Shown piece after piece: positions 1,663-63,287 of a stretch of 63,287 nucleotides of DNA. A program made the position numbers and the translations under genes. Origin of the DNA: a virus; the IMG/VR virus record IMGVR_UViG_3300048623_000041, positions 1 to 63,287 of that record. The stretch is one strand, 5' to 3'. The notes under the pieces are model-generated. The model saw nothing but the letters and a program-made list of their open reading frames with translations, searched no databases and was not told where the DNA came from. Position 1 is the stretch's first letter. Each line of letters begins with the position of its first letter.

Positions 1663-1666
1663 CGGA

Positions 1667-2392: not shown

Positions 2393-2402
2393 GTCTGCCC
2401 CC

Positions 2403-3259: not shown

Positions 3260-3269
3260 GTCGTTCTCC

Positions 3270-5351: not shown

Positions 5352-5355
5352 GGGA

Positions 5356-7065
5356 TCAAACCACCGTGTAGGGCCCGGCGCGCGCCGTAACGGGCGAGCC
5401 GATGCCATTGTTGAGGGTGATATCGAGCCAGAGGAACTTGCCCGCCGTGAGGCCCGAGGCGACCCACGACCAGGTCGAGCCCGAGAGCGTCGTCATCAGC
5501 GTGCCAGCGCCTTCGACGGCGTCGGCGCCGCTGTTTGTGTCGGTCTGGTAGATCTTGCGGGTCGCGAACGCCGTGTCGCTGAAGCCGCCGCCGGACCAGT
5601 GGCCGGTTTCGGCGCGGATCGTGGAGCCGTTGGAGAAGGTGCCGGTCAGACGCTGGACATAGTTGGCGGCAAAGATTGTCGAGGCCTTCCAGATCGGGCA
5701 GGGCTGCGCGCGGGCAACCGTATAGAGCTCGATGAGGTTGAGGTGGTCGACCGTGATCTCGATATCGAGCGTCGACGCGAATCCCCGGAAGGTGATCAGC
5801 GGCTTGGTCGCCATCGGCCCGGCCGAGCCATAGGTCGCAAAGGGCTGGCCGACGTGGAAGGCATCGACCGCGCGGCCCACGCCAGTGTTGAGCGAGGCCG
5901 AGGCGTCGCTGGCGCTGCCGAGCGTGCCGAAGGTGCCCCACACCAGCGAATAGGCCATGAGCCCGAGCGGCGAGCCGCCAGCACCATCGTCGAGCTTGAT
6001 CGCCACCATCGGCGAGAAGTAGCGACCGGGCGTGGACCCCGTTGCCGAGACGTTGGACGTCGTATCGATCAGGACCGTCTGGGTCGCAGCCGGCACGCCC
6101 GAGATGACGGCCTTGGCCTGCTTGTAGGTCGTCTGATCGACGATCGACGCAGCGACCGCCATGCTCGAGCCATTGGCGAGGTTGTTGGTGAGGATCTTGC
6201 CGGTCGGCCACTGGCCGGTCGGGGTGACGCCCGAGCCGTTGAGCGTGCCGGTCGTGCCGCCGCTGAGCAGGGTGTTGCTGTCGAAATTGGTTCCCAGCGT
6301 CGCGATATAGGTCAGAACCTCGGCGCGGGTCGCGGGAACGACCAGTGCACTTACGACATCGTAGAGGCCCGGATTTGTGCCATTCCCGAAGGCGAGCTGG
6401 CGCGCGCCGCGATCGTCGGGATGGACCTTGCTGCTGTCGCTGGAGGGCGAGAGGTTGGCGGCGTTCGAATAGTTGTAGAGCGGATAGGCATCCCAGACGG
6501 TGATACGCGGGTCGGACGCGGCCTTGCCGGTGAGATAGGCCTTCTGGATGACGTTGACGGCGGCAGAATAGGTGCTTTCGCCCGATGCGGTCGAGCCGAT
6601 CGTGGTTGAGAGCACGATGCGGATGTGATTGCCCGCCGGGATGCCGGACAGGAAGAGATCGACCAGCGCCTTCCACGCGTTCATCAAGGCAATGCCCGGC
6701 GCGCCAGCCGGGTCTGTGGTCATGATCGCGTCGTTGTGGCCGAACGATGTGAGCACGGCGATGTGATTGGCGGTGCCGACCTGCCCCGTCGCATAGGGCA
6801 TGCGCGTGGTCATCAGCGCCGCGCTGTCGCCGGAGCGGCACATGTTGTGCATCTCGCTCGGTATGACCCGGCCGGACATCTCGATCAGGGCGCGCGTGAT
6901 CGTGTTGCGCGAACCGCCCGCAGCACCCTCGCTCATCACGCCGTCGCCGATCACGGTGAACAGCGGGCTCAAGGGAAGCGGCGGCAGCGTCGAGACCGGG
7001 ACAGGTGCCCGGCCCATCATCCCGAACCGCCCGCCCATCCTGCCGAAGGTCGGCAGGGACCGCAT
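5356..7065 (-). CDS. Tail-associated protein with an SGNH/GDSL-like hydrolase N-domain (degenerate motifs)
   Basis: ORF 5356..7200 trimmed to ATG 7065, which overlaps the upstream TGA by 1 nt. Motifs: block I-like FTVIGDGVMSEG, block III SFGHND, block V-like KVHPDD. A long beta-rich C-terminal part follows. Confidence 0.55.
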   Translation of the reverse strand: MRSLPTFGRMGGRFGMMGRAPVPVSTLPPLPLSPLFTVIGDGVMSEGAAGGSRNTITRALIEMSGRVIPSEMHNMCRSGDSAALMTTRMPYATGQVGTANHIAVLTSFGHNDAIMTTDPAGAPGIALMNAWKALVDLFLSGIPAGNHIRIVLSTTIGSTASGESTYSAAVNVIQKAYLTGKAASDPRITVWDAYPLYNYSNAANLSPSSDSSKVHPDDRGARQLAFGNGTNPGLYDVVSALVVPATRAEVLTYIATLGTNFDSNTLLSGGTTGTLNGSGVTPTGQWPTGKILTNNLANGSSMAVAASIVDQTTYKQAKAVISGVPAATQTVLIDTTSNVSATGSTPGRYFSPMVAIKLDDGAGGSPLGLMAYSLVWGTFGTLGSASDASASLNTGVGRAVDAFHVGQPFATYGSAGPMATKPLITFRGFASTLDIEITVDHLNLIELYTVARAQPCPIWKASTIFAANYVQRLTGTFSNGSTIRAETGHWSGGGFSDTAFATRKIYQTDTNSGADAVEGAGTLMTTLSGSTWSWVASGLTAGKFLWLDITLNNGIGSPVTARAGPYTVV

Positions 7066-7349
7066 CAGGCGAGCGCCAGGTAGTTGAGGCGTCCGACCTC
7101 GAACCATTCCACCGAACCGGCGGGCAGCAACCTGCCGTTGCTCGTGGCAGTGGTGTCCATCGCGACGTAGTGCGCTTCGATCACGGCCACACGCAGGCAC
7201 TTGGTCGACGTGTCAGGCGCATCGGCCTGCGCCGTGCTGGTGGTGCTGGTGTAGGTCTTGCCGGTGACGCGGCGCGCCGGGTTCATCGGCACAACATTGC
7301 CGTCGACGCACGGCAGGCGGTCGTATTCAACGACGTTGATCGTCCCCAA
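7065..7349 (-). CDS. Small hypothetical virion protein
   Basis: 94-aa ORF with a TTG start. GGGGGA lies 9 nt upstream, directly after the terL N-half. Confidence 0.5.
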   Translation of the reverse strand: MGTINVVEYDRLPCVDGNVVPMNPARRVTGKTYTSTTSTAQADAPDTSTKCLRVAVIEAHYVAMDTTATSNGRLLPAGSVEWFEVGRLNYLALA

Positions 7350-7365
7350 GGCTCAGTCCCCCAAC

Positions 7366-8190
7366 TCAGCCGGGGCGCATGTCCCCTGGCAGAAATTGCA
7401 GAACCACTTCAGTCAAGCCCTGGAGCGGCGTGAATGTCAGGATCAGGATACCACGGGTGGTGGCGAGCCGGATCAGACACTCACCATATACGTCGAGAGG
7501 CACCTCCTCGTCCAGCCATATGATCTCCTTGGCCGTGCCCTCGAACGCTTTTCGGCCTTGCTCGTACGACTTGATCCCAAGGATTGACCAACCGCCGGTC
7601 TTGTGGCGGATCGGCACGGTGTCGACGAGGTTGGCGACACCCTGCTTCCAGGAGATGCCATCGATGTCGATGCAGTCGCGCGGGATCAGGCCGGAGCCAT
7701 CAACGATCTTGCGATTGTTCGCGAACCCGATCTCGCCAAGCAGTTCCTTCTGAACCGTGTCGCGCGTCGTCTCGTTCCGGGCGCCGGCCGCCCAGACGCG
7801 GACGGGCTTGCGGAACTGCCTGCCCTCCCACCATGGGCGATACTGCCCGGTCAGGTGGCTTGCGACCTCCCAGGCCCCCGCTACCGATTTTCCGATTCTG
7901 TTGGCGGCAAGGAAGCATCTTTCCCGATAGAGCTTCCCGGCCGTGAAGTGCTCCATGTGCTTCGGGTAAGCTTGCCGGCTGAGCGGCCCGTCCTCGGGAA
8001 ACAGATCATAGAACCGGTTGAACCGCGCCCGCTCCTCGTCAGCGAGGATGTCCGCCAGCAGCGCCTCGGCCTCGGCATCCGACAACGTGGCGAAGATCTG
8101 CGTCGGGTCGAACTTGTCGGGGTCGAAGCCGGGCTGCGCGCGGAGTTTCGCGGCTAGGTTATCGAGGAGGGACATCTGGCATGCGCACAA
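7366..8190 (-). CDS. terL: Terminase large subunit, N-terminal ATPase half only
   Basis: Walker A AANRIGKS, Walker B IIWLDEE, TFTP motif. The ORF ends ...VVLQFLPGDMRPG at TGA 7368-7366 and has no nuclease domain. The start may be ATG 8175 (MSLLDNL). Confidence 0.85.
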   Translation of the reverse strand: MCACQMSLLDNLAAKLRAQPGFDPDKFDPTQIFATLSDAEAEALLADILADEERARFNRFYDLFPEDGPLSRQAYPKHMEHFTAGKLYRERCFLAANRIGKSVAGAWEVASHLTGQYRPWWEGRQFRKPVRVWAAGARNETTRDTVQKELLGEIGFANNRKIVDGSGLIPRDCIDIDGISWKQGVANLVDTVPIRHKTGGWSILGIKSYEQGRKAFEGTAKEIIWLDEEVPLDVYGECLIRLATTRGILILTFTPLQGLTEVVLQFLPGDMRPG

Positions 8191-8334: not shown

Positions 8335-8646
8335 TCACTGCTCGGTCTCCAAATTCACCGTCAGCCGCACCGTTACCGGATCAATGCGCTGCTGCACGAT
8401 ATCCTCCAGCGTTTCGTTCGGCATGACGTGCACGGTCAGGTCATGCATCCGCACGATCCACTCGCCGGGCTCAAGCGGAATCGGGTAGCTGCCGTCTTCG
8501 GACAGCAGGGCGACCATGTGCCCGGCCTTGGGGTGATAGCTCTCGTCCAGATATCCGCCCTTGCGCATGTCGACGAGCCAAGCAGGCATGAATTCCCACG
8601 CCCAGGCGTCGGGGGTGACGCGGATGGCTTCGATTTGCTCGGTCAT
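8335..8646 (-). CDS. Hypothetical protein
   Basis: 103-aa ORF overlapping the TerS-like stop by 4 nt. Confidence 0.55.
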   Translation of the reverse strand: MTEQIEAIRVTPDAWAWEFMPAWLVDMRKGGYLDESYHPKAGHMVALLSEDGSYPIPLEPGEWIVRMHDLTVHVMPNETLEDIVQQRIDPVTVRLTVNLETEQ

Positions 8647-9134
8647 TTCCCCGCCCCCTTCTTCTCCACGGCGTCCATGAGCTTGTCGCCCAGTAGCGAG
8701 CGGACCTCATCGGGGAGGCGGTGTTCGATCGCGGTCTTGACCGATCCGGTGTGCTTGATCCGCTGGATATTGGTGTAGCTGTCGCCGACTTCCTTCGCCG
8801 CCTGCTCCAAACAGGCACGGGCCTCAGCGATCATGCTCTTTCGCGAGGCGGTACGCTCAAGCTCCTCGAGCCGCTTGATCCGCCATGCGCGCGACGCGAT
8901 GCGACTGCCCCGTGTTTCCTTGTCGAAGGCTTCACGGGTGAGGGTATAGCGCTGCTTCCATTTGTCGGCCAGCTTATGCGCAGCAGCCCCGGTTGGATCA
9001 TATTTGGCCACCTGATCGCGGCCGATGATGACGCCGAACTGCTCCTTGAAGGCAAGCGCAACCTCCGTCGGCGTGGCGTACATCGCCAGCTCGTCAACGA
9101 TAAATGCCTGTTGCTCGCCCGTTAATGCCGCCAA
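8643..9134 (-). CDS. Terminase small subunit candidate (DUF2280-like N-terminal HTH)
   Basis: TTG start with GGGGAG upstream. LTGEQQAFIVDELAMYATPTEVALAFKEQFG resembles DUF2280 as I recall it. It lies just upstream of terL-N. Confidence 0.5.
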   Translation of the reverse strand: MAALTGEQQAFIVDELAMYATPTEVALAFKEQFGVIIGRDQVAKYDPTGAAAHKLADKWKQRYTLTREAFDKETRGSRIASRAWRIKRLEELERTASRKSMIAEARACLEQAAKEVGDSYTNIQRIKHTGSVKTAIEHRLPDEVRSLLGDKLMDAVEKKGAGK

Positions 9135-16436: not shown

Positions 16437-16742
16437 CTAGGCCGCCTGTTCGGGCTGGGGGTGAAGGTGCTGATCCACCCAATCCTGGGCGCGTACATAT
16501 TCGTCTGGTGGAACGCTCTCGGGATCAATGCCGAGCTCTGTGGCGACAATCTTGCGCGTCGCCATCTCTATCAAATGAATCCACTCCGGCGGGGTGACAT
16601 GCACACCATCGCGGTACTTCTGGATTTTCTGGGACTTGTTTTGGCCCGGCTCCAGCTGCGTACTGGCCTCCGCTGCGCAGAGGTCATAAAAAGCGACCAT
16701 GTTTAGCATCGGGCGGGCGGCGAGAAAGGGTCTGAGCTGCAT
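16437..16742 (-). CDS. Cro/YdaS-like regulator, divergent from the repressor
   Basis: Trimmed to ATG 16742, because the track ORF start lies inside the operator. KYRDGVHVTPPEWIHLIEMATRKIVATELGIDPE resembles the YdaS/Cro family. Confidence 0.55.
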   Translation of the reverse strand: MQLRPFLAARPMLNMVAFYDLCAAEASTQLEPGQNKSQKIQKYRDGVHVTPPEWIHLIEMATRKIVATELGIDPESVPPDEYVRAQDWVDQHLHPQPEQAA

Positions 16743-16753
16743 AGACAATAAAA

Positions 16754-16770
16754 TTATCTTAATACGATAT
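16754..16770. promoter_or_regulatory. Operator-like dyad site A1: TTATCTTAATACGATAT
   Basis: Lies in the cro-like/cI-like divergent region. A TTGACA on the minus strand (16778-16773) sits 2 nt away. The site is 19/19 identical to the copy at 17649. Confidence 0.7.
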
Positions 16771-16790
16771 TTTGTCAATGCCTCTCATTG

Positions 16791-16829: not shown

Positions 16830-17471
16830 ATGCTTTACATGGCAGCGAAGCGGAAAATCCGAAAAACCGGCGGCGAGATCTACGCGCCCAATCGTATTGC
16901 GGAAGAGCGCAAGGCCAAGGGCCTGAGCACGCTCGAGCTGTCGCTGATGATCGAGGCCTCACCCGGAACGGTCAACCGGCTGGAGAATCGCAAGGCCGCG
17001 CTCAGCGTCGACTACATGCTGGCAATCGCCAAGGCTCTCAACATTCCGGCCGAACGGCTGCTGCCGAGCCCGACGCTGGTCACAAGCCGGGCGCTCCCGA
17101 TTCTCGGACGCGTCGCCTGCGGAAACTGGCGGGAAGCTATCTCCGAGGCCGAACGCTTCAAGGACGTCGAGGACGACCCCGACATCGGCGGACCGAACGC
17201 CTTCGTACTCGAGCCCGAGGGCGATTCCATGGACATGATCATGGAGGACGCGCGCTGGATCGTCGTCGATCCCGACCAACCCGACCTGATCGACGGCAAG
17301 TTCTACGTCATCATGAACATGGATGGCGAGACGACCTTCAAGCGTTTTCGCGCCGATCCCGCCAGGCTCGAGCCGAGCTCGTCCAATCCCGACCACAAGC
17401 CGATCCTGGTGGGCCGCGAGCCCTTCACCGTCATCGGCCGTGTAACCCTCAGGGTCGGCTCCCCCCAATAG
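16830..17471 (+). CDS. CI/LexA-like repressor (XRE HTH plus S24 peptidase)
   Basis: HTH: LSTLELSLMIEASPGTVNRLENRK. S24 domain: Ser in GDSM and Lys in TFKRF. Start is ATG 16830 or 16839. Confidence 0.85.
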   Translation: MLYMAAKRKIRKTGGEIYAPNRIAEERKAKGLSTLELSLMIEASPGTVNRLENRKAALSVDYMLAIAKALNIPAERLLPSPTLVTSRALPILGRVACGNWREAISEAERFKDVEDDPDIGGPNAFVLEPEGDSMDMIMEDARWIVVDPDQPDLIDGKFYVIMNMDGETTFKRFRADPARLEPSSSNPDHKPILVGREPFTVIGRVTLRVGSPQ

Positions 17472-17665: not shown

Positions 17666-17679
17666 TTCAGGTTCCAGAG

Positions 17680-40356: not shown

Positions 40357-40433
<77 letters not shown>

Positions 40434-40454
40434 TCATTCTGCTGGAGAGCTAAC

Positions 40455-53761: not shown

Positions 53762-54520
53762 TCAATAGCCCACGACGGGGTCGCCGCGATGTGCGGTGCC
53801 GCGGTTGGTTGCAACGGGTCTGGTGATGGCGCGCTTAAAACCGGAGACCATGAGATACCGCTTGGCATCCATCAGGTGATCGTCCTTCTTTAAGATCTTG
53901 CTGGTCTCGACACCGAGTTGGCTCTTGGTCGTCTCGCGCCGGTACAAATTATATTCCGCTCGAAACTTGCTGAGCGTTCTGAATACCTTAAGCATACCCG
54001 TCGAATACATCTGCCAGCAAAGCGCCAGCCCGGTCTCAACGCTCTTGTCGGCCGCCTCAACGTCCAGCCCAAGCTCGCGGTACAACGCCATGGTTCGGGT
54101 ACCATCGTGAGGATTTGTCCCGGCGTAGTCGATGACACCGGGTATCCATTCGCCACGCGCCTTGATCGCTGTCGCGTGAATCGAAGGCTCGGCCTGTCCG
54201 CGATAATGCTCGGCGTAGAGATAGTGGACATTGGTGTCGGGATCCCGCGCGCCCCAGATCCCGGCGGTCATTTTCCAGCCCACGTCGAGGCCGTATGCGC
54301 GTGGCCAGAAGTCCGGGATCGGAAAGGGGTCGACGCTGATCTCGTCAAAGTCGATCGGGTAAATCGCGCCCTCACCAAGCGAGGGAACGCCTTCCGACCG
54401 GGCCTTGCGCAGATGCGGCGGCGTGCTGTCGAGCAGTTCCTTCATGGTCTGCGCATCAAGATGCGGCGCGTCTGACCAACCGCACGTGGTGGTGTAGCGG
54501 GAGGTGCCGACGGCCCCCAC
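53762..54520 (-). CDS. terL: Terminase large subunit, C-terminal nuclease half only
   Basis: GTG start preceded by an in-frame TAG. GWSDAPHL, RAYGLDVGW, KKDDHLMDAKRY (RNaseH-like terminase nuclease motifs). No ATPase motifs. Confidence 0.85.
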   Translation of the reverse strand: MGAVGTSRYTTTCGWSDAPHLDAQTMKELLDSTPPHLRKARSEGVPSLGEGAIYPIDFDEISVDPFPIPDFWPRAYGLDVGWKMTAGIWGARDPDTNVHYLYAEHYRGQAEPSIHATAIKARGEWIPGVIDYAGTNPHDGTRTMALYRELGLDVEAADKSVETGLALCWQMYSTGMLKVFRTLSKFRAEYNLYRRETTKSQLGVETSKILKKDDHLMDAKRYLMVSGFKRAITRPVATNRGTAHRGDPVVGY

Positions 54521-54524
54521 CTAT

Positions 54525-54541
54525 CTATCCCAATACGATAT
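54525..54541. promoter_or_regulatory. Operator-like site E1: CTATCCCAATACGATAT
   Basis: Begins 5 nt from the GTG of the terL C-half. Confidence 0.55.
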
Positions 54542-54556
54542 ACGCGCTTGCGTAAA

Positions 54557-54573
54557 ATATCTTGTTAGGATAT
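54557..54573. promoter_or_regulatory. Operator-like site E2: ATATCTTGTTAGGATAT
   Basis: Perfect ATATC-N7-GATAT arms. Confidence 0.55.
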
Positions 54574-54618
54574 TTAAAGCCCCCATGATGTCCCCACCGC
54601 GCGATAACAGCAGATTAA

Positions 54619-54635
54619 ATATCGTATTTAGGAAT
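54619..54635. promoter_or_regulatory. Operator-like site E3: ATATCGTATTTAGGAAT (inverted orientation)
   Basis: The reverse complement is ATTCCTAAATACGATAT. Confidence 0.5.
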
Positions 54636-54700
54636 TCTTGGGAAGGCCTAGCGGTTTATGCCGCCTGTGCTCTGTTCCCCCTCCCCCGCCAGGTGCCGGC

Positions 54701-55387
54701 ATGAACGGGGTGCGTCCGAAGCTGCTTGACCTATTCTGCAAGGCTGGTGGCGCAGCGATGGGCTATCACCGTGCGGGCTTCGATGTTGTTGGCGTCGATA
54801 TAGAGCCGCAGCCGAACTACCCTTTCGAGTTCATCCAAGCTGACGCGCTGGCGCTCGACCCCGCATTCATCGCCTCCTTCGACGCGATCCACGCCAGCCC
54901 GCCCTGCCAGCGATATAGCCAGATGAGTGTTCGGTATGCGGACACTGCTCGAGCATCGCGGCCGGACCTCATCGCGCCAGTTCGCCAGATGCTCGAATTT
55001 GCAGGACTGCCGTTCGTGATCGAGAATGTGAATGGCGCGCGTCACGAACTGAAAAAGCCGTTCCGGCTCACCGGAGAGATGTTCGGCCTCGGAGTTCATC
55101 GTCCTCGATGGTTCGAGAGCAACGCCTACATTCTCGCGCCGATAGCGCCTCCCAAGCAGCCCGATCCGATTGCGGTCTATGGCGCGCGGATGGATGGAAG
55201 GCTTCTATGGAAGCGCACGGACGGAACCGAGCTGCGGGCGCCGCGCTCGATCGAGCCGTGCAGAGAGGCCATGGGCATCGACTGGATGGATTGGGACGAA
55301 CTGAAGGAATCGATCCCTCCCGCCTACACTCAATTCATCGGCCGCCAGCTATTCGCTCACATCGAAGCGCAAAGGAAAGCAGCATGA
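54701..55387 (+). CDS. Compact C5-cytosine DNA methyltransferase
   Basis: Trimmed to MNGVRPK. Motif I DLFCKAGGAAMGY, motif IV SPPCQ, motif VI ENV, C-terminal SIPPAYTQFIG. Confidence 0.75.
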   Translation: MNGVRPKLLDLFCKAGGAAMGYHRAGFDVVGVDIEPQPNYPFEFIQADALALDPAFIASFDAIHASPPCQRYSQMSVRYADTARASRPDLIAPVRQMLEFAGLPFVIENVNGARHELKKPFRLTGEMFGLGVHRPRWFESNAYILAPIAPPKQPDPIAVYGARMDGRLLWKRTDGTELRAPRSIEPCREAMGIDWMDWDELKESIPPAYTQFIGRQLFAHIEAQRKAA

Positions 55388-55830
55388 ACGGGGTGGCTGC
55401 ACTGGCAGAGCGCGTGGAAGCGGGAGCGATAAAAGCTCTCAGCATCAAGCAGCCCTATCCGCATCACATCTTCCACGATGGCAAGGACGTGGAGAACCGC
55501 GACTGGCCTACGAAGGGGCGCGGCTGGGTAATTGTGCACGCGGGAGTGAGCAAGACCGAACTGGACATGGAAGATCCGCACGAAGCCGCAATGCCTCGCG
55601 GTGGCGTTGTCGGCATGATGAAGATTGTTGATTGCGTCGAGCAAATGGACAGTCGCTGGTTCTTTGGTCGGTACGGCTTCGTCATTGGTGAGGCGTTCCC
55701 GTTGCCGCTTATCGAATGCAGGGGTCAGCTCGGCTTCTTCAAGCTGCCGGGCGAGGTTAACCGCGCCATCGCAGCCGCTCTTCGGGCTCGCAGCATGATC
55801 CCGCCAATCCCTCCGACTGGGGAAGGGTGA
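55384..55830 (+). CDS. ASCH domain protein
   Basis: ALSIKQPYPHHIFHDGKDVENRDW. ATGA overlap with the methylase. Confidence 0.7.
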   Translation: MNGVAALAERVEAGAIKALSIKQPYPHHIFHDGKDVENRDWPTKGRGWVIVHAGVSKTELDMEDPHEAAMPRGGVVGMMKIVDCVEQMDSRWFFGRYGFVIGEAFPLPLIECRGQLGFFKLPGEVNRAIAAALRARSMIPPIPPTGEG

Positions 55831-55838
55831 GCATGGGC
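55784..55838. repeat. Direct repeat copy 1 flanking the phosphatase gene
   Basis: GGGCTCGCAGCATGATCCCGCCAATCCCTCCGACTGGGGAAGGGTGAGCATGGGC. It differs from 56535..56592 by 2 mismatches and a 3-nt indel. Confidence 0.9.
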
Positions 55839-56549
55839 CTGACCTTTGCAATCGCCGATACCCACGGGCGCTTCGACCTGCTCTGCAAGGCTGTTTCCCT
55901 GTGTGAGGATTACTCACGCGGAGGAGGCACGCTGATCGTCCTTGGCGACTTCGTTGATCGCGGTCCCCAGTCTCGTTCGATCATCGACCTGCTTATGGCA
56001 GGCCCGACGCTGCCGAACTGGCGGTGGATCGTCCTACAGGGCAATCACGAAGCGATGATGCTGGAGTGCCTGACCAACCCCGGTATTCTGAAATGGTGGA
56101 TCGGTAACGGTGGCAACGCCACGTTGAAAAGCTACGGCTATCAACACGGCGACGACCTGCTCCCGCTTAAGATACCGACCAATCATCTAATGTGGCTAGC
56201 TGAATTGCCGGTTTTCCACGAGGACGATCATCGTATTTACGTCCACGCTGGCGTGCCGTTCGATCAGGACGTGCGTGAAACCAAAACCGATACTCTCCAG
56301 TGGATGCTTTACGCCGGATATGATCCAATGGGCGAGAGCGCGACTATCATGCCGGATGAAAGGCATGTGTCTGGCAAGCACATCGTTCACGGCCATGAGC
56401 AGTCTGCGACGCACCCGCTCATAAAACCGCACCGCACTAATCTCGATAGCTTCGCCTGGTACACGGGTCAGCTCGCGATCGGTGTGTTCGATGAAGAACA
56501 GCCCGGCGGCCCGATCAACGTCCTGTTTGCGGAAGGGCCCGCAGCATGA
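55833..56549 (+). CDS. Ser/Thr protein phosphatase (lambda PPase-like metallophosphoesterase)
   Basis: ADTHGRFD, GDFVDRG, GNHE, VHGHE. The start is placed at the ATG inside the repeat, by analogy with copy 2. Confidence 0.85.
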   Translation: MGLTFAIADTHGRFDLLCKAVSLCEDYSRGGGTLIVLGDFVDRGPQSRSIIDLLMAGPTLPNWRWIVLQGNHEAMMLECLTNPGILKWWIGNGGNATLKSYGYQHGDDLLPLKIPTNHLMWLAELPVFHEDDHRIYVHAGVPFDQDVRETKTDTLQWMLYAGYDPMGESATIMPDERHVSGKHIVHGHEQSATHPLIKPHRTNLDSFAWYTGQLAIGVFDEEQPGGPINVLFAEGPAA

Positions 56550-56592
56550 TCCCGCTAATCCCTCCGACGACTGGGGAAGGGTGAGCATGGGC
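56535..56592. repeat. Direct repeat copy 2
   Basis: GGGCCCGCAGCATGATCCCGCTAATCCCTCCGACGACTGGGGAAGGGTGAGCATGGGC. It contains the RBS and ATG of the next gene. Confidence 0.9.
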
Positions 56593-56799
56593 GAGGAAAC
56601 CTATCGCGGATGGTCGATCCATCAAGGGCGCTGGCCGGAACCTGCATGGATGGCGACAGGCCCCAATTACGACGCCTCCTATGAGGGGGAAGAAGACGGC
56701 TGGGTCGACAATGGCGAGAAGGCCGATGCGCCTACGCTTGAAGCTCTAAAACAAGAAATCGACATTTGGTTTGAGGAGCACGGCGATGACCGGCAATGA
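56587..56799 (+). CDS. Small acidic protein
   Basis: MGEETYRGWSIHQGRW.... 70 aa. Confidence 0.55.
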   Translation: MGEETYRGWSIHQGRWPEPAWMATGPNYDASYEGEEDGWVDNGEKADAPTLEALKQEIDIWFEEHGDDRQ

Positions 56800-56995
56800 T
56801 TGGGCTTTCGGCCCGTGGATCGATTGGGCTGGCGGCGCTTGCCCGGTAGCAGAATATTCATTCCCTGAGGTTCGCTATCGGTCGAACGGCACCACAGAGA
56901 TGCAGGCCAACAAGCTCCGTTGGGAGCATACCGGCGCATGGGATGACGTGTTTGCCTATCGCGTGAGGCGTGTGATGCCGGGGATTTGTCCATGA
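56786..56995 (+). CDS. Small Trp-rich protein
   Basis: MTGNDWAFGPWIDWAGG.... Confidence 0.5.
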   Translation: MTGNDWAFGPWIDWAGGACPVAEYSFPEVRYRSNGTTEMQANKLRWEHTGAWDDVFAYRVRRVMPGICP

Positions 56996-57198
56996 CCGAT
57001 CCAATCCCCAATTCCCAACCCGGAGACAATGAAATGAGCGCTGAGATGGAGCCAGACTATTACGACTGCGGCTATTGTTACGGAAACGGCTGCCTGTCCT
57101 GCGGCATGACGGGTCGGGTCGAGAGCGCCAGCCATCGCGAGGACCGCGAGGATTATGAAGATCGGAAAGCAGACGCGATCCGGAAAGGTGAATGGTGA
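56992..57198 (+). CDS. Mini-protein with a DnaJ-type zinc finger (CxxCxGxG)
   Basis: CGYCYGNGCLSCGMTG. ATGA overlap with the upstream gene. Confidence 0.5.
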   Translation: MTDPIPNSQPGDNEMSAEMEPDYYDCGYCYGNGCLSCGMTGRVESASHREDREDYEDRKADAIRKGEW

Positions 57199-57851
57199 TG
57201 GAGCCGAGGGAGCAAGTAGCGCGGAACATCGCACCATCCGAATGGGCCGAGCGAGACCGCTGCTCTCAACTGCGCGACTATTACGATCAGGAATATGCGA
57301 ACATTCAGCTATTCGGCTCATTTGAAGGATGGGTTGACCGAATGACCGGCCCGTCGCTTAAGGCGGCTGACGCGATACTTTCAGCCCTCGCAGCCCACCC
57401 CGTCGAGATCGAGGCCGGGCAGTGGCCGGATATTGCGAGCGCGCCGAAGGATGGGAGCTATATCCTTGCCGAAGTGGCGGAGAACGATAGCCTTCAATTT
57501 CGCCATCAAGTCGGTCGCATGTTCGTCATCCGTCATGAAGGCAGGACAGCCAGTGGTTGCGATCTGGGTTGGGCGGTGTATCCAGGCTATGGCGGTGCCC
57601 CAGACAGCTTTTTCTCGCGCTGGCAGCCTGTCCCGCCCGCCCCTCCCCTCTCCCGCGACACGTCCGAGATCGAGGCTGCGCTGGAGCCGTTTGCGGCATT
57701 TGCCGACGCGCTCAATGATGCCGTACCTGATAACATTGCGCTCGCGATCTTTGCCGACGGTGCCACAATGTTCGGACCCGGCGCGCCCTCTGTTGGCGAT
57801 CTTCGCCGTGCCCGATCCGCCCTCGCCAGCCTGCGGGGTGCGCGGTCGTGA
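57192..57851 (+). CDS. Hypothetical protein, paralogous N-module A
   Basis: 219 aa. Its N-terminus is shared with 58065..58316. Confidence 0.6.
   Translation: MVMEPREQVARNIAPSEWAERDRCSQLRDYYDQEYANIQLFGSFEGWVDRMTGPSLKAADAILSALAAHPVEIEAGQWPDIASAPKDGSYILAEVAENDSLQFRHQVGRMFVIRHEGRTASGCDLGWAVYPGYGGAPDSFFSRWQPVPPAPPLSRDTSEIEAALEPFAAFADALNDAVPDNIALAIFADGATMFGPGAPSVGDLRRARSALASLRGARS
57210..57365. repeat. Dispersed repeat copy 1 (62-nt perfect core 57255..57316)
   Basis: The core GACCGCTGCTCTCAACTGCGCGACTATTACGATCAGGAATATGCGAACATTCAGCTATTCGG is identical to 58158..58219. Confidence 0.9.
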
Positions 57852-58063
57852 GCGGGGAAGCTGAAGGCCCGCAGCCCGAGTTTCCTACTCGGTTCCGCTA
57901 TCCAGAAAAGATCGCGCCGGGCCGTTACGAGGTCAAATGCTGGGTCGGGGGCGAGCACATGGCTGTGCGCTTCAAAACGGAGCGAGATGCGGCGCGGTTC
58001 TTTCGGGCTGCCGAGCGCGGCCAGACGGTCGTATTCGATGAACCTCATGGGAGCACGATTTAA
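57848..58063 (+). CDS. Small hypothetical protein
   Basis: 71 aa, GTG start. Confidence 0.5.
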   Translation: MSGEAEGPQPEFPTRFRYPEKIAPGRYEVKCWVGGEHMAVRFKTERDAARFFRAAERGQTVVFDEPHGSTI

Positions 58064-58064
58064 C

Positions 58065-58316
58065 ATGACCACCGACACCGATGCGCTGGAAGTGGCTGCG
58101 GGGCTGGAGATTGAGCAGATCGCGCGAATCATTGCCCCTTCGGAGTGGGCAGAGCGCGACCGCTGCTCTCAACTGCGCGACTATTACGATCAGGAATATG
58201 CGAACATTCAGCTATTCGGGTCGTTCGAAGGATGGGTTGACCGAATGACGGGCCCCTCATTGAAGAAGGCTGCCACAATCCGCGCCCTTCTATCAGCCCA
58301 GCAGGAGATTTTGTGA
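58065..58316 (+). CDS. Hypothetical protein, paralogous N-module B
   Basis: Trimmed to MTTDTDALEV.... Shares IAPSEWAERDRCSQLRDYYDQEYANIQLFGSFEGWVDRMTGPSLK. Confidence 0.55.
   Translation: MTTDTDALEVAAGLEIEQIARIIAPSEWAERDRCSQLRDYYDQEYANIQLFGSFEGWVDRMTGPSLKKAATIRALLSAQQEIL
58113..58268. repeat. Dispersed repeat copy 2
   Basis: See 57210..57365. Confidence 0.9.
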
Positions 58317-58489
58317 TGGGCTTCCGACTTAGCAACTTCGACGACTTCTGCGCTGGGGCGAAATGCACCCCTACTGAGCGCGATCAATTGGCATGGCATC
58401 TCGCGATGTTCCGCGCCCGCCGAACCTATGAGGAGTTGATGAAATGTCCCTCTACGCGACCTGCCCGTGCGGCATTCCGGAAGGCTTAG
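58316..58489 (+). CDS. Possible 57-aa protein
   Basis: Own translation: MGFRLSNFDDFCAGAKCTPTERDQLAWHLAMFRARRTYEEL.... Overlaps the next gene by 46 nt. Confidence 0.3.
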   Translation: MGFRLSNFDDFCAGAKCTPTERDQLAWHLAMFRARRTYEELMKCPSTRPARAAFRKA

Positions 58490-59037
58490 ATATGGTTCAC
58501 TTGCGTACCGATTGTCCGCATTACGGTGCGTCGCCCATGACTGACACTCCCCCGGCGGGGCTGGTGGCCGTTGAGCAGTGCGATCGGGATGCGGCGGCCA
58601 ATCTGGCGCAATGGCTCATAAATGCCAGTTTGGCATGGAGCGAAGATTACACACCCTTCTTCGTAGCGGAATTCCCGCAAAAGGTGCGCGAAGGAATTTG
58701 GGATAACCATGACTGGGCCCAAGCCTTCGCCCGCCACCGCATCAAAGCAACCCGCGCGATGGGGGTTGAGATCCAAAATATCCGTGAAGTTCGCGATCAG
58801 ACAGTTATTCTCGCCAAAGAGTATCTCGCCCGCGCCACCAAGGCCGAAGCCAAGCTTGAGGCTATGCGGGAGGCGGCGCAGGTTCTTGTCGACAAACTAG
58901 ACGAAGTGGCACCGCATATATCCGGTCAAACGGCGTATATGCTGGCGCACGGGATTAAATACGATGGGCCCAATTATGGGGAAGAGCTGAAGTCTCTACG
59001 CCAAGCCCTCTCACGCGAGGGAGGTTCTGCATCGTGA
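58444..59037 (+). CDS. Hypothetical protein
   Basis: 197 aa. GAGGAG lies 8 nt upstream. Confidence 0.6.
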   Translation: MSLYATCPCGIPEGLDMVHLRTDCPHYGASPMTDTPPAGLVAVEQCDRDAAANLAQWLINASLAWSEDYTPFFVAEFPQKVREGIWDNHDWAQAFARHRIKATRAMGVEIQNIREVRDQTVILAKEYLARATKAEAKLEAMREAAQVLVDKLDEVAPHISGQTAYMLAHGIKYDGPNYGEELKSLRQALSREGGSAS

Positions 59038-59219
59038 GCAAAAGCAGCCCTTGGCGCACCAATTATATGTGGCGGAAATCATTTGGGAAGCAGCCGCCGG
59101 GTTTCCGTCGTCCGTGGCCGTGGATGCGCTTAATCGAGAAGCGAGTTGATAGACTCATCGAAGCACAATTCAGAAATAAACTTTACGCGGATTATGTTCG
59201 GCACAGAAAGTCGCACTGA
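59034..59219 (+). CDS. Small basic protein
   Basis: 61 aa. Confidence 0.45.
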   Translation: MSKSSPWRTNYMWRKSFGKQPPGFRRPWPWMRLIEKRVDRLIEAQFRNKLYADYVRHRKSH

Positions 59220-59240
59220 TTCCCCTACAGGAGACCCCCG

Positions 59241-59495
59241 ATGCAGGATGAAGTGAGCGCGGAGCAGGTGGATATCGACGCCGCAACCCGATGGTGGCTG
59301 GCGTCAGATCAGTTGCGAACGGCAGAGTTTGGCGAACTGGCTAAGGCCTTCGCGGAGGCCCGGTATCAAGAGCGCGAGCGGTGCGCCAAGGTTGCCGAAA
59401 GATACATGAGTTACGGGATATCGGGCGAGGTTGCTAAAAATATAGCACAGCGCATCCGCCAAGGGTCGGCCATCACAGAACGGAGCGGGGGATGA
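59241..59495 (+). CDS. Small hypothetical protein
   Basis: 84 aa. Confidence 0.5.
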   Translation: MQDEVSAEQVDIDAATRWWLASDQLRTAEFGELAKAFAEARYQERERCAKVAERYMSYGISGEVAKNIAQRIRQGSAITERSGG

Positions 59496-59614
59496 TGACG
59501 GAACGTGAGAAATTCCTTTGTATCCAGCACCGTCTGCCCATGATCCTATGGTTCAGCCGAACCACTCAACGCTGGATCTATTACTGTCACCACTGTCTGG
59601 AGCAAGTCGTATGA
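59492..59614 (+). CDS. 40-aa Cys-containing peptide
   Basis: Own translation: MMTEREKFLCIQHRLPMILWFSRTTQRWIYYCHHCLEQVV. ATGA-coupled at both ends. Confidence 0.35.
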   Translation: MMTEREKFLCIQHRLPMILWFSRTTQRWIYYCHHCLEQVV

Positions 59615-59781
59615 AGATAGGACGATATCACTCAACGATGATTACGGGCTATCGCGGTCACGGCAAGCGCTGGGGTAAGATCAACTTCGGCAACGGCTTT
59701 ACGCTGCGCTTTGGGCGTCTCGCCTTCCATTTCTGGAAGGCCCCAGATCCGAAATATTATTCTGGGCGAACCAGGTCATGA
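59611..59781 (+). CDS. 56-aa basic peptide
   Basis: MKIGRYHSTMITGYRGHGKRWGK.... Confidence 0.4.
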   Translation: MKIGRYHSTMITGYRGHGKRWGKINFGNGFTLRFGRLAFHFWKAPDPKYYSGRTRS

Positions 59782-59972
59782 CCACCCCGCCCTCGATTGA
59801 TGCGCTGCGGCCGTGCCCGCGTTGTGGCGCCTTGCCTTGCGATTGGGTGGATAATCCGCACAAACCCGGCGCCAACCTGTCAACAAACCCCGATATTTCG
59901 AACACGTCACCGGGATATGTTAAGCAGGGTGACGCGATGGTGGAGCGGGTTGAGAACGGAGGCGAGTTATGA
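59778..59972 (+). CDS. Small protein with CPRC
   Basis: 64 aa. Confidence 0.45.
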   Translation: MTTPPSIDALRPCPRCGALPCDWVDNPHKPGANLSTNPDISNTSPGYVKQGDAMVERVENGGEL

Positions 59973-60496
59973 TCAGCCAGTCTTCAACAAAGCGCTTTTG
60001 GAGATATGTCGATAAAACGCCAGGCCATGGGCCTAATGGCGATTGCTGGCTTTGGACTGGCCCGATGTCCAGAGATTACGGCAGAATGGGGTGTGATGGC
60101 AAAAGGCGAAGAGCAACCCATATCTCGTGGGAAATTGCCACAGGGCAAGAGTTCCCGGAGGGCGCGTTCGGACTTCATAGTTGCGATAATCCGCCCTGTG
60201 TAAATGGCGCCCACATCTTCCCTGGCACCAATACGGATAACGCCGCTGACAAGTCGGCGAAGGGGCGGCACCACATGCAGAATGTATCGACCTGCCCCAG
60301 CGGGCACGACCTATCTGGCGATAACCTTCTCATAGATCGGCGAGGGCATAGGCGCTGCAGGTGCTGTCAACAAAAACATAATCGAGATTATGCCACAAGG
60401 CGTCGAAAGCAAGCCCGAGCGGCAATCGCCGCCCTCACCCCTGCTCCCAGCCCCGCACAGTCCACCGCCGCCGACACGCCAGCCACACCCGGTTGA
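59969..60496 (+). CDS. HNH endonuclease
   Basis: LHSCDNPPCVNGAHIFPGTNTDNAADK, plus a C-terminal Cys/His cluster. Confidence 0.75.
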   Translation: MISQSSTKRFWRYVDKTPGHGPNGDCWLWTGPMSRDYGRMGCDGKRRRATHISWEIATGQEFPEGAFGLHSCDNPPCVNGAHIFPGTNTDNAADKSAKGRHHMQNVSTCPSGHDLSGDNLLIDRRGHRRCRCCQQKHNRDYATRRRKQARAAIAALTPAPSPAQSTAADTPATPG

Positions 60497-60534
60497 GTGC
60501 GGGCACGCAGTGAACATCGAATGGAGACCCCAAG

Positions 60535-60909
60535 ATGAGACGGCTTGATAGCAACGATGACCTGATGAACGGCGTTGTGACCTATGAATTTGGGGACGGC
60601 CACCGCATTTGTTTAGATGAGCGGGCGGTTCGCGAATATGGCGCTGAGACAATAATTCGCGATATGGGCTATGGGTATTTTCTCGAAACGAAGCGCCTGC
60701 CGGTCATGCAAAACGGAAAGCAAGTAGGCACGCTACCGCCAAACTTTGACGCCCTGATGGTTAGGAGCCGATCGCCATTTTACGATGTCCGCCCTGGTGA
60801 CTTCATTAGGCAGGGCGATGTGTGGACGGCAAGCAAGATGCTTGGCCGCGGCGATCTTGAGGCGGTTCCGGGATTCGTGTGGGATAAGTCATCTTCCAGC
60901 AGGGCGTAG
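60535..60909 (+). CDS. Hypothetical protein
   Basis: 124 aa. Last gene of the plus-strand block. Confidence 0.55.
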   Translation: MRRLDSNDDLMNGVVTYEFGDGHRICLDERAVREYGAETIIRDMGYGYFLETKRLPVMQNGKQVGTLPPNFDALMVRSRSPFYDVRPGDFIRQGDVWTASKMLGRGDLEAVPGFVWDKSSSSRA

Positions 60910-60945
60910 GCTTCGGGGAGCATGGGGCCTTATAGCGCGCCGACC

Positions 60946-63081
60946 CTAAGCCGCGAACACCGTCATCCCACCCGGCAGGCTATTATCCCCGCCAATCATG
61001 TTGTGCAGCCTGAACCGGACGGCCACGACGTCGTTGCACGATCCGCGCCAGGTCTTGAGGCCATTGGTGACGTCGACATCGTAGAAGATCGAATTGTACA
61101 TCACGGCGCCGGACATCAGGAAGATCGCGTTCCGGATGACCGTGCCCCCGACCGTATCCATCACGAACTTGAAATTGATCAGGAAGACGTTCCGGAAGTG
61201 GCCGTTGTCGTCGAAGTACGGCCCCTGCGCATTGGCCGCCACGAACTCGATATTATAGAAGCAGCCGCCATAAGGAAGGTCGGTGGAAAGCTGATCCACC
61301 GTCACACGATTGAAGATCTGGAGCGCGTCAGGGTGGAAGCCATCGCCGGCCTGATTGACGCCCGGCGACGACTGGATCCTGCCCGAGGTGATGACGTCGA
61401 ACTTGGAGTTGAGCACGCAGTGACAATTACGGAGCGTGTCGCACGCGATGGTGCCGCCGTGCATATCCTTGATCAGCACCGCGCCCGGGAACGAGTTCGG
61501 CCAGTTGGTGATCGAGCCGCCGGTGACGAACAGATAGCAGGACACGTTCGAGATCGGGAAGACGTCGCCGACCTTGAGGTAGGATGCACCACGATCGAAC
61601 CGCGGATTCTCCAGCCAGAGCTTGCCCGTGGCCGAGGTCGGGAACGGGAACGTGCCGGTATAGGCGATGTTGCGCAGCCGCAGCATCGGCAGGCCCGAGC
61701 CGGAGACGCTGTTGATGACGACATTGGTCTGCCCGGTATCGGCCTCGACGACGGCCCATCGCCGGTTATCGGCAAAGCCCGAGGGATTATAGGTGTAGGT
61801 GCCGTTGCGCAGCTTGATCCGGGCGCCGCCGATCGAGTTGCCATTGGTCGGGCCGATGACCTGAAACGCGCGCAGCAGCGTCTTGTAGGCGGCGTTCGCG
61901 GTGTTGCCGCTGTTGGCGTCATTGCCAGCCACCGAATCCACATATTTGACCGGCGCCGCGAGCGTGCCGTTGGCGTTGGTGCAGAAGCGGAACCCGCGCG
62001 GGCTGAACTTGTCGTCACCCTGGCCGATGATGATGTCGCCGTTGAACGGCACCGATCGGATCCGGACTTCGCGCAGGATCGTGCCCGAGGTCGTGTAGAC
62101 CCCGTCCGGATACTGGTCCGGGTCGACGATGACCTTGAACGACCAGCGATTCGTGGTCGGGCTGTAGCGCACGGGCACGCGCACGGCCGGACCGTTGTCG
62201 AGTTGCGCCTCGGCATAGTCGACGCCCCAGGTCGGGTTCTGGCGCGCATCCCATGCTGATTTCGGCCCGGTGTGGAAATTGACGAACTCGAGCACGGTCT
62301 GCTGCGTCAATTCGTCATAGGTGACGTCGCACCACCACAGCCCGGGCTTGTGGCCGTAGCCGATCCCGGTCGAGGATCCGATGTTCGCGGTCCCCGCCAG
62401 GGGCGCGGTCCAGCCGCTGCCCTTCTGCAGGATCGGGATGTCGGTCGCGGCGGTGACGGTGAAGGTCCACGGCCCGAGATCGGCGGTCTGGCCGATGCTG
62501 TCGGTGGCGCGGATCCGGATCGGCGTGAAGGTTCCGGCCGTGCTGGCCCCGAGCGTTACCGTCGCCCGGTCGCCCGCGGTGTTCATGGCGATGCTGGAGC
62601 CAGCCGGGGGCGAGCCGATGAAGATCGCGCTGTAGCGCTGTCCGACCGTTGCAGGCCTGCCCCCGGTGATGTCGATCGTGAAGGTGACGCTGTCGCCCTG
62701 CAGGGCAGACGTGACGGGCGTGCCGATGATCTGGAGCGGTGCCGAGGGGTTGTCCTGCACCAGCGTCGTAGCCGCGCTCGCCTCGACCCCGATGGCACCG
62801 TAGAGCGTGGTCGCCGTGATCTCGGCGCGGACCTGCTTGCCGATCTGTTCGGCCTTCAGGATGAGCGTATCAGCGGTCTCGCCCGGAATATCATCCCAGA
62901 ACAGCGACGGGATCGTCTGCGTCTGCCACTGCACCGCATAGGCGACGATCGGGATGCTCCACGTCCCCGGCGAGGTCAGGGTCAGGGTCTGACCCACCCG
63001 GGGCGTTCCGGACGTGGTGGGAAGCGCGGTGGCGACAGGCGCCTGCCGCACCCGTCCCCGCAGAGCCAATGGCAAAGGCAT
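60946..63081 (-). CDS. Tailspike / polysaccharide depolymerase candidate (Ig-like N-domains plus pectate-lyase-type beta-helix)
   Basis: Trimmed to ATG 63081 (MPLPLALRGRV...) with GGAG upstream. VKYVDSVAGNDANSGNTANAAYKTLLRAFQ...IKLRNGTYTY is a typical beta-helix N-cap. Confidence 0.7.
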   Translation of the reverse strand: MPLPLALRGRVRQAPVATALPTTSGTPRVGQTLTLTSPGTWSIPIVAYAVQWQTQTIPSLFWDDIPGETADTLILKAEQIGKQVRAEITATTLYGAIGVEASAATTLVQDNPSAPLQIIGTPVTSALQGDSVTFTIDITGGRPATVGQRYSAIFIGSPPAGSSIAMNTAGDRATVTLGASTAGTFTPIRIRATDSIGQTADLGPWTFTVTAATDIPILQKGSGWTAPLAGTANIGSSTGIGYGHKPGLWWCDVTYDELTQQTVLEFVNFHTGPKSAWDARQNPTWGVDYAEAQLDNGPAVRVPVRYSPTTNRWSFKVIVDPDQYPDGVYTTSGTILREVRIRSVPFNGDIIIGQGDDKFSPRGFRFCTNANGTLAAPVKYVDSVAGNDANSGNTANAAYKTLLRAFQVIGPTNGNSIGGARIKLRNGTYTYNPSGFADNRRWAVVEADTGQTNVVINSVSGSGLPMLRLRNIAYTGTFPFPTSATGKLWLENPRFDRGASYLKVGDVFPISNVSCYLFVTGGSITNWPNSFPGAVLIKDMHGGTIACDTLRNCHCVLNSKFDVITSGRIQSSPGVNQAGDGFHPDALQIFNRVTVDQLSTDLPYGGCFYNIEFVAANAQGPYFDDNGHFRNVFLINFKFVMDTVGGTVIRNAIFLMSGAVMYNSIFYDVDVTNGLKTWRGSCNDVVAVRFRLHNMIGGDNSLPGGMTVFAA

Positions 63082-63094
63082 CAGCCTGGTCTCC

Positions 63095-63287
63095 TCACGT
63101 CGAGATCGCGAGGGTCGCAGCGACCCATTGCGTGTTGCTGTTGGTGAACGCGGCCGGGTTCGTGCTCGAAAGCGCCGGGGCCGTCCGCGAGCAGGAGGCG
63201 ACGACGACGCCGCCGGATCCGCCATTGCCGCGATAATCGCCGCCGCTGTACCCGGCAGGATAGAAAGAGACCGCGTTACCGCCGTTG
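63095..63287 (-). CDS. 3' end of the junction-spanning fibre gene (63161..63287 duplicates 1..127)
   Basis: The same frame continues ...NPAAFTNSNTQWVAATLAIST then TGA at 63097-63095. GGAG and the ATG of the next gene follow 13 nt later. Confidence 0.75.
   Translation of the reverse strand, partial: NGGNAVSFYPAGYSGGDYRGNGGSGGVVVASCSRTAPALSSTNPAAFTNSNTQWVAATLAIST
63161..63287. repeat. Second copy of the 127-bp terminal overlap
   Basis: Identical to 1..127. Confidence 0.95.

Follow-up and report, generated by a model that had tools for sequence, protein, structure and literature searches.

TerL is the hallmark gene by which tailed-phage genomes are found, classified and checked for completeness, and its product is taken to be one chain in which the ATPase and nuclease domains communicate in cis as DNA is packaged. 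Here, we analysed the viral DNA of IMG/VR record IMGVR_UViG_3300048623_000041, positions 1 to 63,287 (the whole stretch, referred to as the window), in which TerL is encoded by two genes, terL-N for the ATPase domain and terL-C for the nuclease domain. Since positions 1..127 recur as 63161..63287, the window represents a 63,160-bp circle, round which the two genes are separated by the 16,005 bp of 54521..63160 plus 1..7365, hereafter called the arc. An earlier sequence-only reading of the window had drawn the same arc between two terL halves, and its coordinates were borne out. Annotators of actinobacteriophages use separate names for ATPase and nuclease TerL genes. In herpesviruses the terminase ATPase gene UL15 consists of two exons that flank the opposite-strand genes UL16 and UL17, and its halves are joined by mRNA splicing (reviewed: PMC6466031). 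The window resembles UL15 in that the halves of a homologous packaging ATPase/nuclease gene are parted by unrelated genes, some of them on the opposite strand; unlike the spliced UL15, however, its terL halves have their own start and stop codons and no splicing signal.

Several phage enzymes and structural proteins are known to be encoded in pieces. The homing endonuclease gene mobE divides nrdA of Aeromonas phage Aeh1 in two (Friedrich et al. 2007, via PMC5418858). As that secondary source relates it, the case shares with TerL an essential phage enzyme that exists as two separately translated polypeptides, which must still act in concert, with unrelated DNA between the pieces; for TerL this is read here from the genes alone. 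In the same account the split in Aeh1 goes back to one homing endonuclease gene, whereas the TerL split is lineage-wide, lies at a domain linker, and is often insert-free or else holds structural and accessory genes over as much as 16 kb. In N4-like phages the RNAP1 and RNAP2 genes are separated by zero to eight spacer genes (PMC5418858), again an enzyme that is usually one chain but here has two genes, between which the count of unrelated genes differs among relatives; unlike in the window, these spacers are few small genes of the same operon that include no divergent promoter or host-range cluster, and the enzyme is a different one. In the cultured podovirus Pseudoalteromonas phage phiRIO-1 the gene for tubular tail protein B is split around two unrelated structural genes, and both polypeptides were detected in virions (PMC4819975); the likeness lies in a split structural gene with unrelated genes between its parts, the difference in the protein concerned. 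Closer in terms of the gene, cultured Arthrobacter phages of cluster AT carry two non-adjacent TerL-related genes, which the paper gives without further comment (PMC5513430), so that the likeness consists in this arrangement, the paper being silent on whether the genes are ATPase and nuclease halves. In Jug phages terL is interrupted by an intron (PMC12880540), and the records of Proteus phage 3H10_20 and Xanthomonas phage DES1 have terL annotated in pieces. We considered the cultured phage DES1 as an example of an interdomain split and rejected it, as its terL is cut at a different site, near Walker A. Unlike terL genes interrupted at other sites by group I introns, inteins or homing endonucleases, which are self-splicing or homing, the window contains none of these elements as far as could be found. 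The two-gene TerL with a variable cargo slot, as described below, is kin to these known phage enzymes in pieces, with the window as the most extreme case to date. In the literature searched we found no description of a lineage with an interdomain two-gene TerL and a variable cargo slot.

The two terL genes of the window (Table 1) together account for a complete TerL. The terL-N product ends in FLPGDMRPG with a stop codon directly after it, and the terL-C product, read from the GTG at 54520, opens with (V/M)GAVGTSRYTTTCGWSDAPHL. This start yields VGAVGTSRYTTTCGWSDAPHL, as expected of a nuclease ORF (open reading frame) of the split lineage, which has its own start just before ..S[KR]Y.V.AGW.D.PHL. 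When aligned with intact TerLs, terL-N covers residues ~15-250 and terL-C residues ~260-500, and the product of an in-silico join (520 amino acids, aa) shows 50-57% identity to intact TerLs of 480-500 aa over 85-95% of the length. In the TerL alignment the junction coincides with the interdomain linker, with zero residues missing or duplicated. The catalytic motifs are kept, i.e. Walker A (AANRIGKS), Walker B (WLDEE) and TFTP in TerL-N, and GLDVG and DDHLMDA in TerL-C. Four intact TerLs searched back against the window matched only terL-N and terL-C, so that no further terL-like sequence was detected there. Moreover, 269 plus 252 aa amount to a full TerL, and there is therefore no room for intein fragments. 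Judging from the two sequences, the TerL-N and TerL-C polypeptides would form an active terminase. Portal lies 11 nucleotides (nt) downstream of terL-C, and the minus-strand gene string with terL-N continues from a cro-like gene (16437..16742).

To see how the split is distributed, we drew related loci from IMG/VR, GTDB genomes, JGI metagenomes and annotated phage records around relatives of the portal protein and of TerL-N (loci are numbered L, TerL-N proteins P). In 64 of the 68 non-redundant related loci that hold both TerL halves, TerL is encoded by two separate ORFs that are cut at the linker used in the window. In these split relatives TerL-N ends in FLPxDxRP.. with its own stop codon, and TerL-C opens with a conserved M-P-E-I-[ST]-x-S-[KR]-Y, the Met of which is missing from intact TerLs. 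In adjacent pairs of genes, stop and start codons overlap (ATGCCTGA, ATGA, TGATG), the usual signature of translational coupling, which suggests coupled translation of two polypeptides. Prophages of isolates with sequenced genomes have the split as well, which is therefore no metagenome artefact (the complete chromosome of an Aminobacter, Aminobacter aganoensis DSM 7051, two species of Azospirillum, Metarhizobium album and Vibrio galatheae); in addition, an uncultured podovirus record that was deposited with two "large terminase" coding sequences shows the interdomain split. Among the 150 best cluster representatives of an exhaustive, profile-free TerL-N search, 62 stop where the ATPase domain stops and 65 are full length, the top matches being mostly N-only. 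A neighbour-joining tree, computed without support values, places the window within an all-split clade (L096, L007, L086, L097, L118, the L014 group and L084/85), whose members have gaps of -16 nt to 3.2 kb between the two genes. The closest TerL is that of the L014 group with a gap of 113 bp; it shares with the window both the ...DMRPG(G)* end and the GTG start. As the linker is cut in nearly all related loci and throughout the window's own clade, the split long predates the arc. The abundance and persistence of the split, with catalytic motifs kept, argue for function.

A separate feature of the N-only proteins is that 21 of the 62 (380-630 aa; e.g. P0121, P0123, P0126, P0133 and P0137) carry an insert of ~130-360 aa after query residue ~95, next to Walker A. 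These inserts are probably inteins within TerL-N genes that were already split. Another protein, P0034 (816 aa), has a Pfam Intein_splicing domain. In L128 (4475-9971), a prophage in the finished chromosome of Aminobacter sp. UC22_36, terL-N is followed by three small genes, a 788-aa ORF and a terL-C that overlaps the end of this ORF; the prophage is a possible culturable test system for a two-gene terminase.

The space between the two genes varies widely from relative to relative, from an overlap of 8 nt to 11 kb. The gap measures at most 30 nt at 16 loci, 31-300 nt at ten, 301-1500 nt at 20 and 1.5-5 kb at 14, and exceeds 5 kb at four (maximum 8.9 kb). One additional relative has a gap of 11.2 kb, and the 16.0 kb of the window are the largest seen in this analysis. 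The ORFs found between the halves are nearly all unrelated from one relative to the next, and none of the arc proteins had a tblastn match in the relatives' loci. In many gaps the last one to three ORFs, directly before terL-C, are large same-strand frames (480-1150 aa) rich in Ala, Thr and Gly. The few cargo proteins to which a family could be assigned include a phrog_5939 tail protein (3e-89), virion structural phrogs and a GDSL/SGNH esterase domain (1e-11); matches to collagen, SPRY and adhesin families stayed below threshold. Taken together, these contents fit a gap that serves as a receptor-binding cargo slot. For putative opposite-strand ORFs in the relatives' gaps a Pfam search returned nothing, and these ORFs may be spurious antisense frames; gene strand in the gaps, as judged by GC-frame analysis, gave an inconsistent outcome and was dropped.

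The explanation that we consider probable is a native two-gene TerL lineage in which the gap between the genes acts as a cargo slot, here 16 kb in length and with the halves in different operons. According to this explanation, TerL would exist throughout a widespread podovirus/prophage lineage as two genes cut at the interdomain linker, one for the ATPase (TerL-N) and one for the RNaseH-like nuclease (TerL-C), whose products would assemble non-covalently into the packaging motor. With an enzyme already in pieces, DNA could build up between the genes without cost, and the gap would become a hypervariable cargo slot. In the window the slot would have grown to its present size by taking up a 9.6-kb spike/fibre cluster and a 6.4-kb opposite-strand accessory operon, which appear to have accreted within the pre-existing gap and not as one unit. 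As a consequence, terS and terL-N would come last in the cro-side gene string, and terL-C and portal would head a separately controlled structural operon.

Table 1. Features of the window that bear on the split TerL, in order of position from the portal gene round the circle to the immunity region and the 40-kb dyads.
Feature	Position	Strand	Assignment or remark
Portal gene, 783 aa	51399..53750	-	Anchor in the search for relatives
terL-C, TerL nuclease domain, 252 aa, GTG start	53762..54520	-	Pfam Terminase_6C
A/T-rich divergent control region, 180 bp, between terL-C and the methylase operon	54521..54700	.	Three operator-like sites
Operator-like sites	54526-54545; 54555-54575; 54617-54637		54555-54575 is a perfect dyad (AAATATC-N7-GATATTT)
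C5 cytosine DNA methyltransferase, 228 aa	54701..55387	+	Pfam PF00145 at 2.5e-8; phrog_363 at 3.9e-38
148-aa protein	55384..55830	+	phrog_3193 (unknown function) at 2e-35; no Pfam match
Calcineurin-like metallophosphatase	55833..56549	+	Pfam PF00149 at 1e-10
~11 small ORFs	56590..59972	+	No family assignment; GC3 0.61-0.68
HNH endonuclease, 175 aa	59969..60496	+	phrog_826 at 7.5e-30 and six other HNH phrogs
Last plus-strand ORF, 124 aa	60535..60909	+	Converges on the spike cluster across 36 bp
711-aa orphan, predicted all-beta	60946..63081	-	GC3 0.85; only self and a weak Ig-like match
575-aa gene across the window ends	5' part 1..1662, 3' part 63095..63287 (63161-63287 repeats 1-127)	-	Gene call in L001 at 16514-18241
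241-aa protein	1667..2392	-	No Pfam, PHROG or PDB match
151-aa and 133-aa genes	2403..3259	-	133-aa: weak tail-fibre/minor-tail PHROGs, phrog_8780 (1.2e-6) and phrog_16053 (1.1e-4)
693-aa tailspike/depolymerase-like protein	3270..5351	-	Homologues, AF2 model and Foldseek
569-aa and 94-aa genes	5356..7349	-	No family or PDB match; begin 16 nt after the terL-N stop
terL-N, TerL ATPase domain, 269 aa from ATG	7366..8175 (ORF open to 8190)	-	Pfam Terminase_6N
DUF2280 protein, upstream of terL-N	8643..9134	-	Pfam PF10045 at 5e-28
Operator motif copy	16752..16772	.	In the 87 bp that separate the cro-like gene from the HTH_3/Peptidase_S24 repressor gene (16830..17471, +)
Operator motif copies	17614-17634; 17647-17667		Just downstream of the repressor gene
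Operator motif copies	40224-40244; 40256-40276		

The part of the arc next to terL-N is a minus-strand cluster of eight genes (94, 569, 693, 133, 151, 241, 575 and 711 aa; 9.6 kb) that is co-directional with terL-N and convergent with the plus-strand genes. In line with the sequence-only reading, the long minus-strand gene string on the cro side closes, by the gene calls, with the fibre genes. For the large arc proteins, sequence searches in Pfam, PHROG and PDB came back mostly empty, and the 569-aa and 94-aa products are presumed to be tail-associated from their position only. For the 693-aa protein we found 13 full-length homologues with 37-65% identity, some of them with PF07880, and an AlphaFold2 (AF2) model built from the homologue alignment reached a pLDDT of 80.4 and a pTM of 0.81. 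In Foldseek its best PDB matches were the K1 capsule lyase 7w1d (3e-7), P560, KP34p57 and LKA1 gp49, with 7w1d, 7vul, 8bke and 4ru4 as top entries at a probability of 0.90-1.0, and its BFVD matches were tail spike, tail fibre and depolymerase entries. The TM-scores are low (~0.3), as expected for elongated monomers taken out of trimers. Hence, the assignment of the 693-aa protein as a right-handed beta-helix phage tailspike/depolymerase-like protein is supported by the model. The 711-aa orphan gave an unusable single-sequence model (pLDDT 36), so that only one of the two beta-helix spikes named in the sequence-only reading could be substantiated; an SGNH-like protein, which it had also listed, found no counterpart, as no SGNH-like domain was detected in any of the eight cluster proteins. 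The 575-aa protein has a segment of 107-109 aa in common with the 151-aa protein (41-42% identity).

Homologues of the 693-aa spike also occur on unrelated backbones. One, with 65% identity, is part of a siphovirus-type tail module; another, with 54% identity, lies in L144 (3617-5800) between a 532-aa gene, presumed to encode the terminase, and the portal gene (Phage_portal_3) of an unrelated head module of the Mu-F type. Neither backbone has any other arc gene alongside. Judging from these placements, single spike genes are mobile, and the terminase-portal junction may host spike genes outside this lineage too. In composition, the arc spike genes (GC content at third codon positions, GC3, of 0.82-0.87) are close to the structural backbone (0.84-0.88).

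The remaining part of the arc is a block of ~17 plus-strand ORFs (6.4 kb), encoded opposite to the terL genes. This nearly matches the ~18 accessory genes counted previously, and profile searches support the methylase, phosphatase and HNH assignments made at that time; the ORF then called ASCH matches only phrog_3193. The block was also described as A/T-richer, which is correct insofar as its GC content is 58.1% (GC3 0.61-0.68), compared to 65.5% in the spike block, 62.6% in the arc overall and 62.9% in the rest of the genome. Low GC is, however, not unique to the arc, since other early genes outside it have GC3 values of 0.59-0.70, as low as those of the block. At the convergent junction near 60.92 kb no significant hairpin was detected. 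Two repeat structures were noted within the block. Direct repeats at 55784-55838 and 56535-56592 (55-58 bp, 91% identical) bracket the metallophosphatase gene, an exact 25-mer in them covering stop codon, ribosome-binding site and start codon; they look like a junction duplication left by insertion of a single-gene cassette. A 188-nt direct repeat (57210-57397 and 58113-58300, 81-89% identity), by which the ORFs 57192-57851 and 57987-58316 have a common 63-residue N-terminal domain, is on sequence grounds a local duplication within the accessory block.

Between terL-C and the methylase operon lies the divergent control region, in which the three operator-like sites that had been pointed out before were confirmed (Table 1). 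The operator motif, with the consensus ATATC-TTAATAC-GATATTT, has seven matches in the window (16752, 17614, 17647, 40224, 40256, 54555 and 54617) compared to 0.54 expected, and besides the cro/CI gap, three more intergenic regions contain ATATC-N7-GATAT sites. The dyads can thus be read as putative operators of a CI/Cro-type repressor. As the arc dyads show the motif of the immunity region, the arc control region would therefore be wired to the same regulator, and with three cro/CI-type operators beside terL-C, terL-N and terL-C would be under separate control. Parts of this control site recur in relatives. The terL-C-proximal dyad (TATCGTATTGGGATAG as read along the strand of terL-C) recurs with 14/16 identity within the 90-nt gap between terL-N and terL-C of L007, and at each of the five loci of the L014 group (L014-L019, 9.5-22 kb) the sole AATACGATA 9-mer falls inside the 113-bp gap (L014 9100-9120), a half-site like that of the window's operator. 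An exact TATC-N7-GATA upstream of terL-C was found among the relatives at one other locus only, L007. This suggests, as a lead and not as a rule, that the control site before terL-C is older than the arc. The L007 dyad, AAACTATC-N7-GATAGTTT at 7620-7645, lies exactly in the terL gap and resembles the window's operator. The dyads at 40224 and 40256 stand just upstream of tRNA-Met (40357-40433), a gene of the N4 gp49/Sf6 gp66 family (40455-40808) and tRNA-Arg(tct) (40975-41051); the stretch 40224-41051 looks like a fourth operator-bearing control region.

How the two genes came to lie 16 kb apart can be explained in several ways other than a native split with a cargo slot. That the arrangement is an assembly artefact or a chimera of two molecules has, in our view, a negligible chance. 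The window is a metagenomic contig whose closure rests on a 127-bp overlap, and the contigs that confirm it are 100% identical to it and may share its source sample. Nonetheless, a Logan assembly contig and a JGI contig also run across both terL junctions, with fibre genes following terL-N and the methylase gene diverging from terL-C, i.e. a second assembler's contigs cross both junctions. Their identity to the window means that they represent the same genome and confirm its assembly, and that they offer no independent variant. The junctions lack repeats able to mislead an assembler, and the split-terL architecture also occurs in finished bacterial chromosomes. The sequence-only reading proposed that the arc is a 16-kb unit of its own for host range and anti-defence that entered an intact terL, which would leave the gene disrupted and the phage defective or in need of excision. 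We regard this as very improbable. The lower GC content and GC3 of the plus-strand block, the mosaic distribution of single spike genes among unrelated backbones and the gain and loss of DNA in the slot across relatives speak for it; against it, 64 of 68 relatives are cut at this very site and have a stop and a start codon there, cargo-free ones and even those with overlapping genes included, and the clade of the window is split throughout. Close relatives with an empty, uninterrupted terL site were not found, none of the relatives being close, and cargo-free relatives still have two ORFs. Hence, joining the halves, which had been thought to yield a conventional genome, would not bring back the ancestral state of this lineage. 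Nor were marks of a mobile unit seen in the arc. Att-type or inverted repeats were not detected at the two junctions, matches between the junction neighbourhoods being at most 9 nt and at chance level; no long repeat was found that joins the arc ends or the arc with the rest of the genome; and no arc gene matched a recombinase, integrase or transposase family in the Pfam and PHROG annotation, in which many ORFs are unassigned. The operators are those of the cro/CI immunity region, and the GC3 of the spike genes is that of the backbone. What survives of the transferable host-range module is that the space between the terL genes gathers and turns over host-range and accessory genes (0-11 kb in relatives, unrelated and often fibre-like); its landing in an intact terL does not.

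Restoration of terL by a programmed rearrangement or by splicing, whether through site-specific excision of the arc from some of the genomes, through an intron or a split intein, or through translational bypass, appears hardly credible. A stop codon immediately after the last TerL-N residue and a short TGGGGG string at both junctions could be taken as hints. Recombination at TGGGGG, however, would keep the stop codon, recombinases and repeats were not found, Rfam identified only two tRNAs and no intron in the window, and 269 plus 252 aa already make a full TerL; furthermore, the arc contains opposite-strand genes, and relatives with adjacent halves still have two ORFs with their own ATG. A further alternative accepts the ancestral split and lets the arc, or its 6.4-kb opposite-strand half together with the control region, arrive as one unit in the existing gap, donated by a phage of the same immunity. 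This we think unlikely. The plus-strand block is compositionally distinct, it interrupts the co-directional order of terL-N, cargo and terL-C seen in relatives, and cassette-type junction repeats surround its phosphatase gene. Contrary to arrival as a unit, the dyad before terL-C is near-identical in the 90-nt gap of L007 and partly present in the L014 group, so that the control region is probably native, and boundary repeats were not found; arc-protein homologues are absent from the relatives' loci, the sole exception being the 693-aa spike gene in unrelated backbones, and other backbone early genes have equally low GC3. The native two-gene TerL with an accreted cargo slot thus remains our preferred explanation, with several points weighing against it. 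Most cargo proteins of the relatives are without a family assignment, and the notion of a spike slot generalises from a minority of annotated cases; moreover, the window's spike cluster follows terL-N, while the large ORFs of relatives sit right before terL-C. The plus-strand block differs in composition, and no close relative was found that would reveal how the arc was built: portal-anchored scans of four collections gave full-length portal identities of at most ~48%, and megablast of the arc against phage genomes gave zero matches. Elsewhere in the unsupported neighbour-joining tree, a small number of intact TerLs fall between split ones, which blurs the history of splitting and fusion. The putative operator role of the dyads is deduced from symmetry, position and recurrence. 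Finally, we found no experiment and no cultured representative in which an interdomain-split TerL packages DNA, the sole phage-collection record being an uncultured genome.

A more speculative view, which we put forward tentatively and hold to be rather unlikely, is that the split is itself a design. The terL half-genes, the most conserved two of the phage, would then serve as fixed homology arms round the host-range cassette for spike swaps between co-infecting relatives. In this sub-lineage, with a dyad right before terL-C in the window and L007 and part of one in the L014 group, the cut would also be a repressor-controlled operon boundary that places TerL-C on another schedule than TerL-N. 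If so, TerL would be a two-subunit, separately regulated enzyme in a large unstudied phage group. Irrespective of this, annotation pipelines may label genomes with a split terL as fragmented, defective or interrupted. A split TerL would also offer a natural system in which to study motor function with the domains as separate polypeptides, and receptor-binding and accessory genes could be sought, predictably, in the slot between the halves. At 16 kb apart and in different transcription units, the two genes of the window mark the extreme, which would indicate that they need not be linked.

Apart from the terL genes and the arc, several other genes of the window were noted. The 3249-aa ORF at 27102-36851 (minus strand) is a polyvalent protein with Peptidase_M23, an inorganic pyrophosphatase domain, LPD1/3/5/38 and a weak ART-PolyVal match, and probably represents an injected multi-effector virion protein. 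Within the cro-side gene string, an 87-aa ORF (9858-10121, minus strand) has a weak match to the Pfam Acb2/Tad1-hairpin family, which makes it a possible anti-CBASS/Thoeris sponge; an MT-A70 methyltransferase gene (12514-13125) and a DUF2303 gene lie nearby. The 420-aa ORF at 24626-25888 (plus strand), presumably the lysogeny integrase of the sequence-only reading, had no Pfam match at 1e-3, and the HTH_3/Peptidase_S24 repressor is the only firm lysogeny marker found. In addition, the window contains a DUF5131 gene (18375-19448) and a RecT gene (21044-22453).

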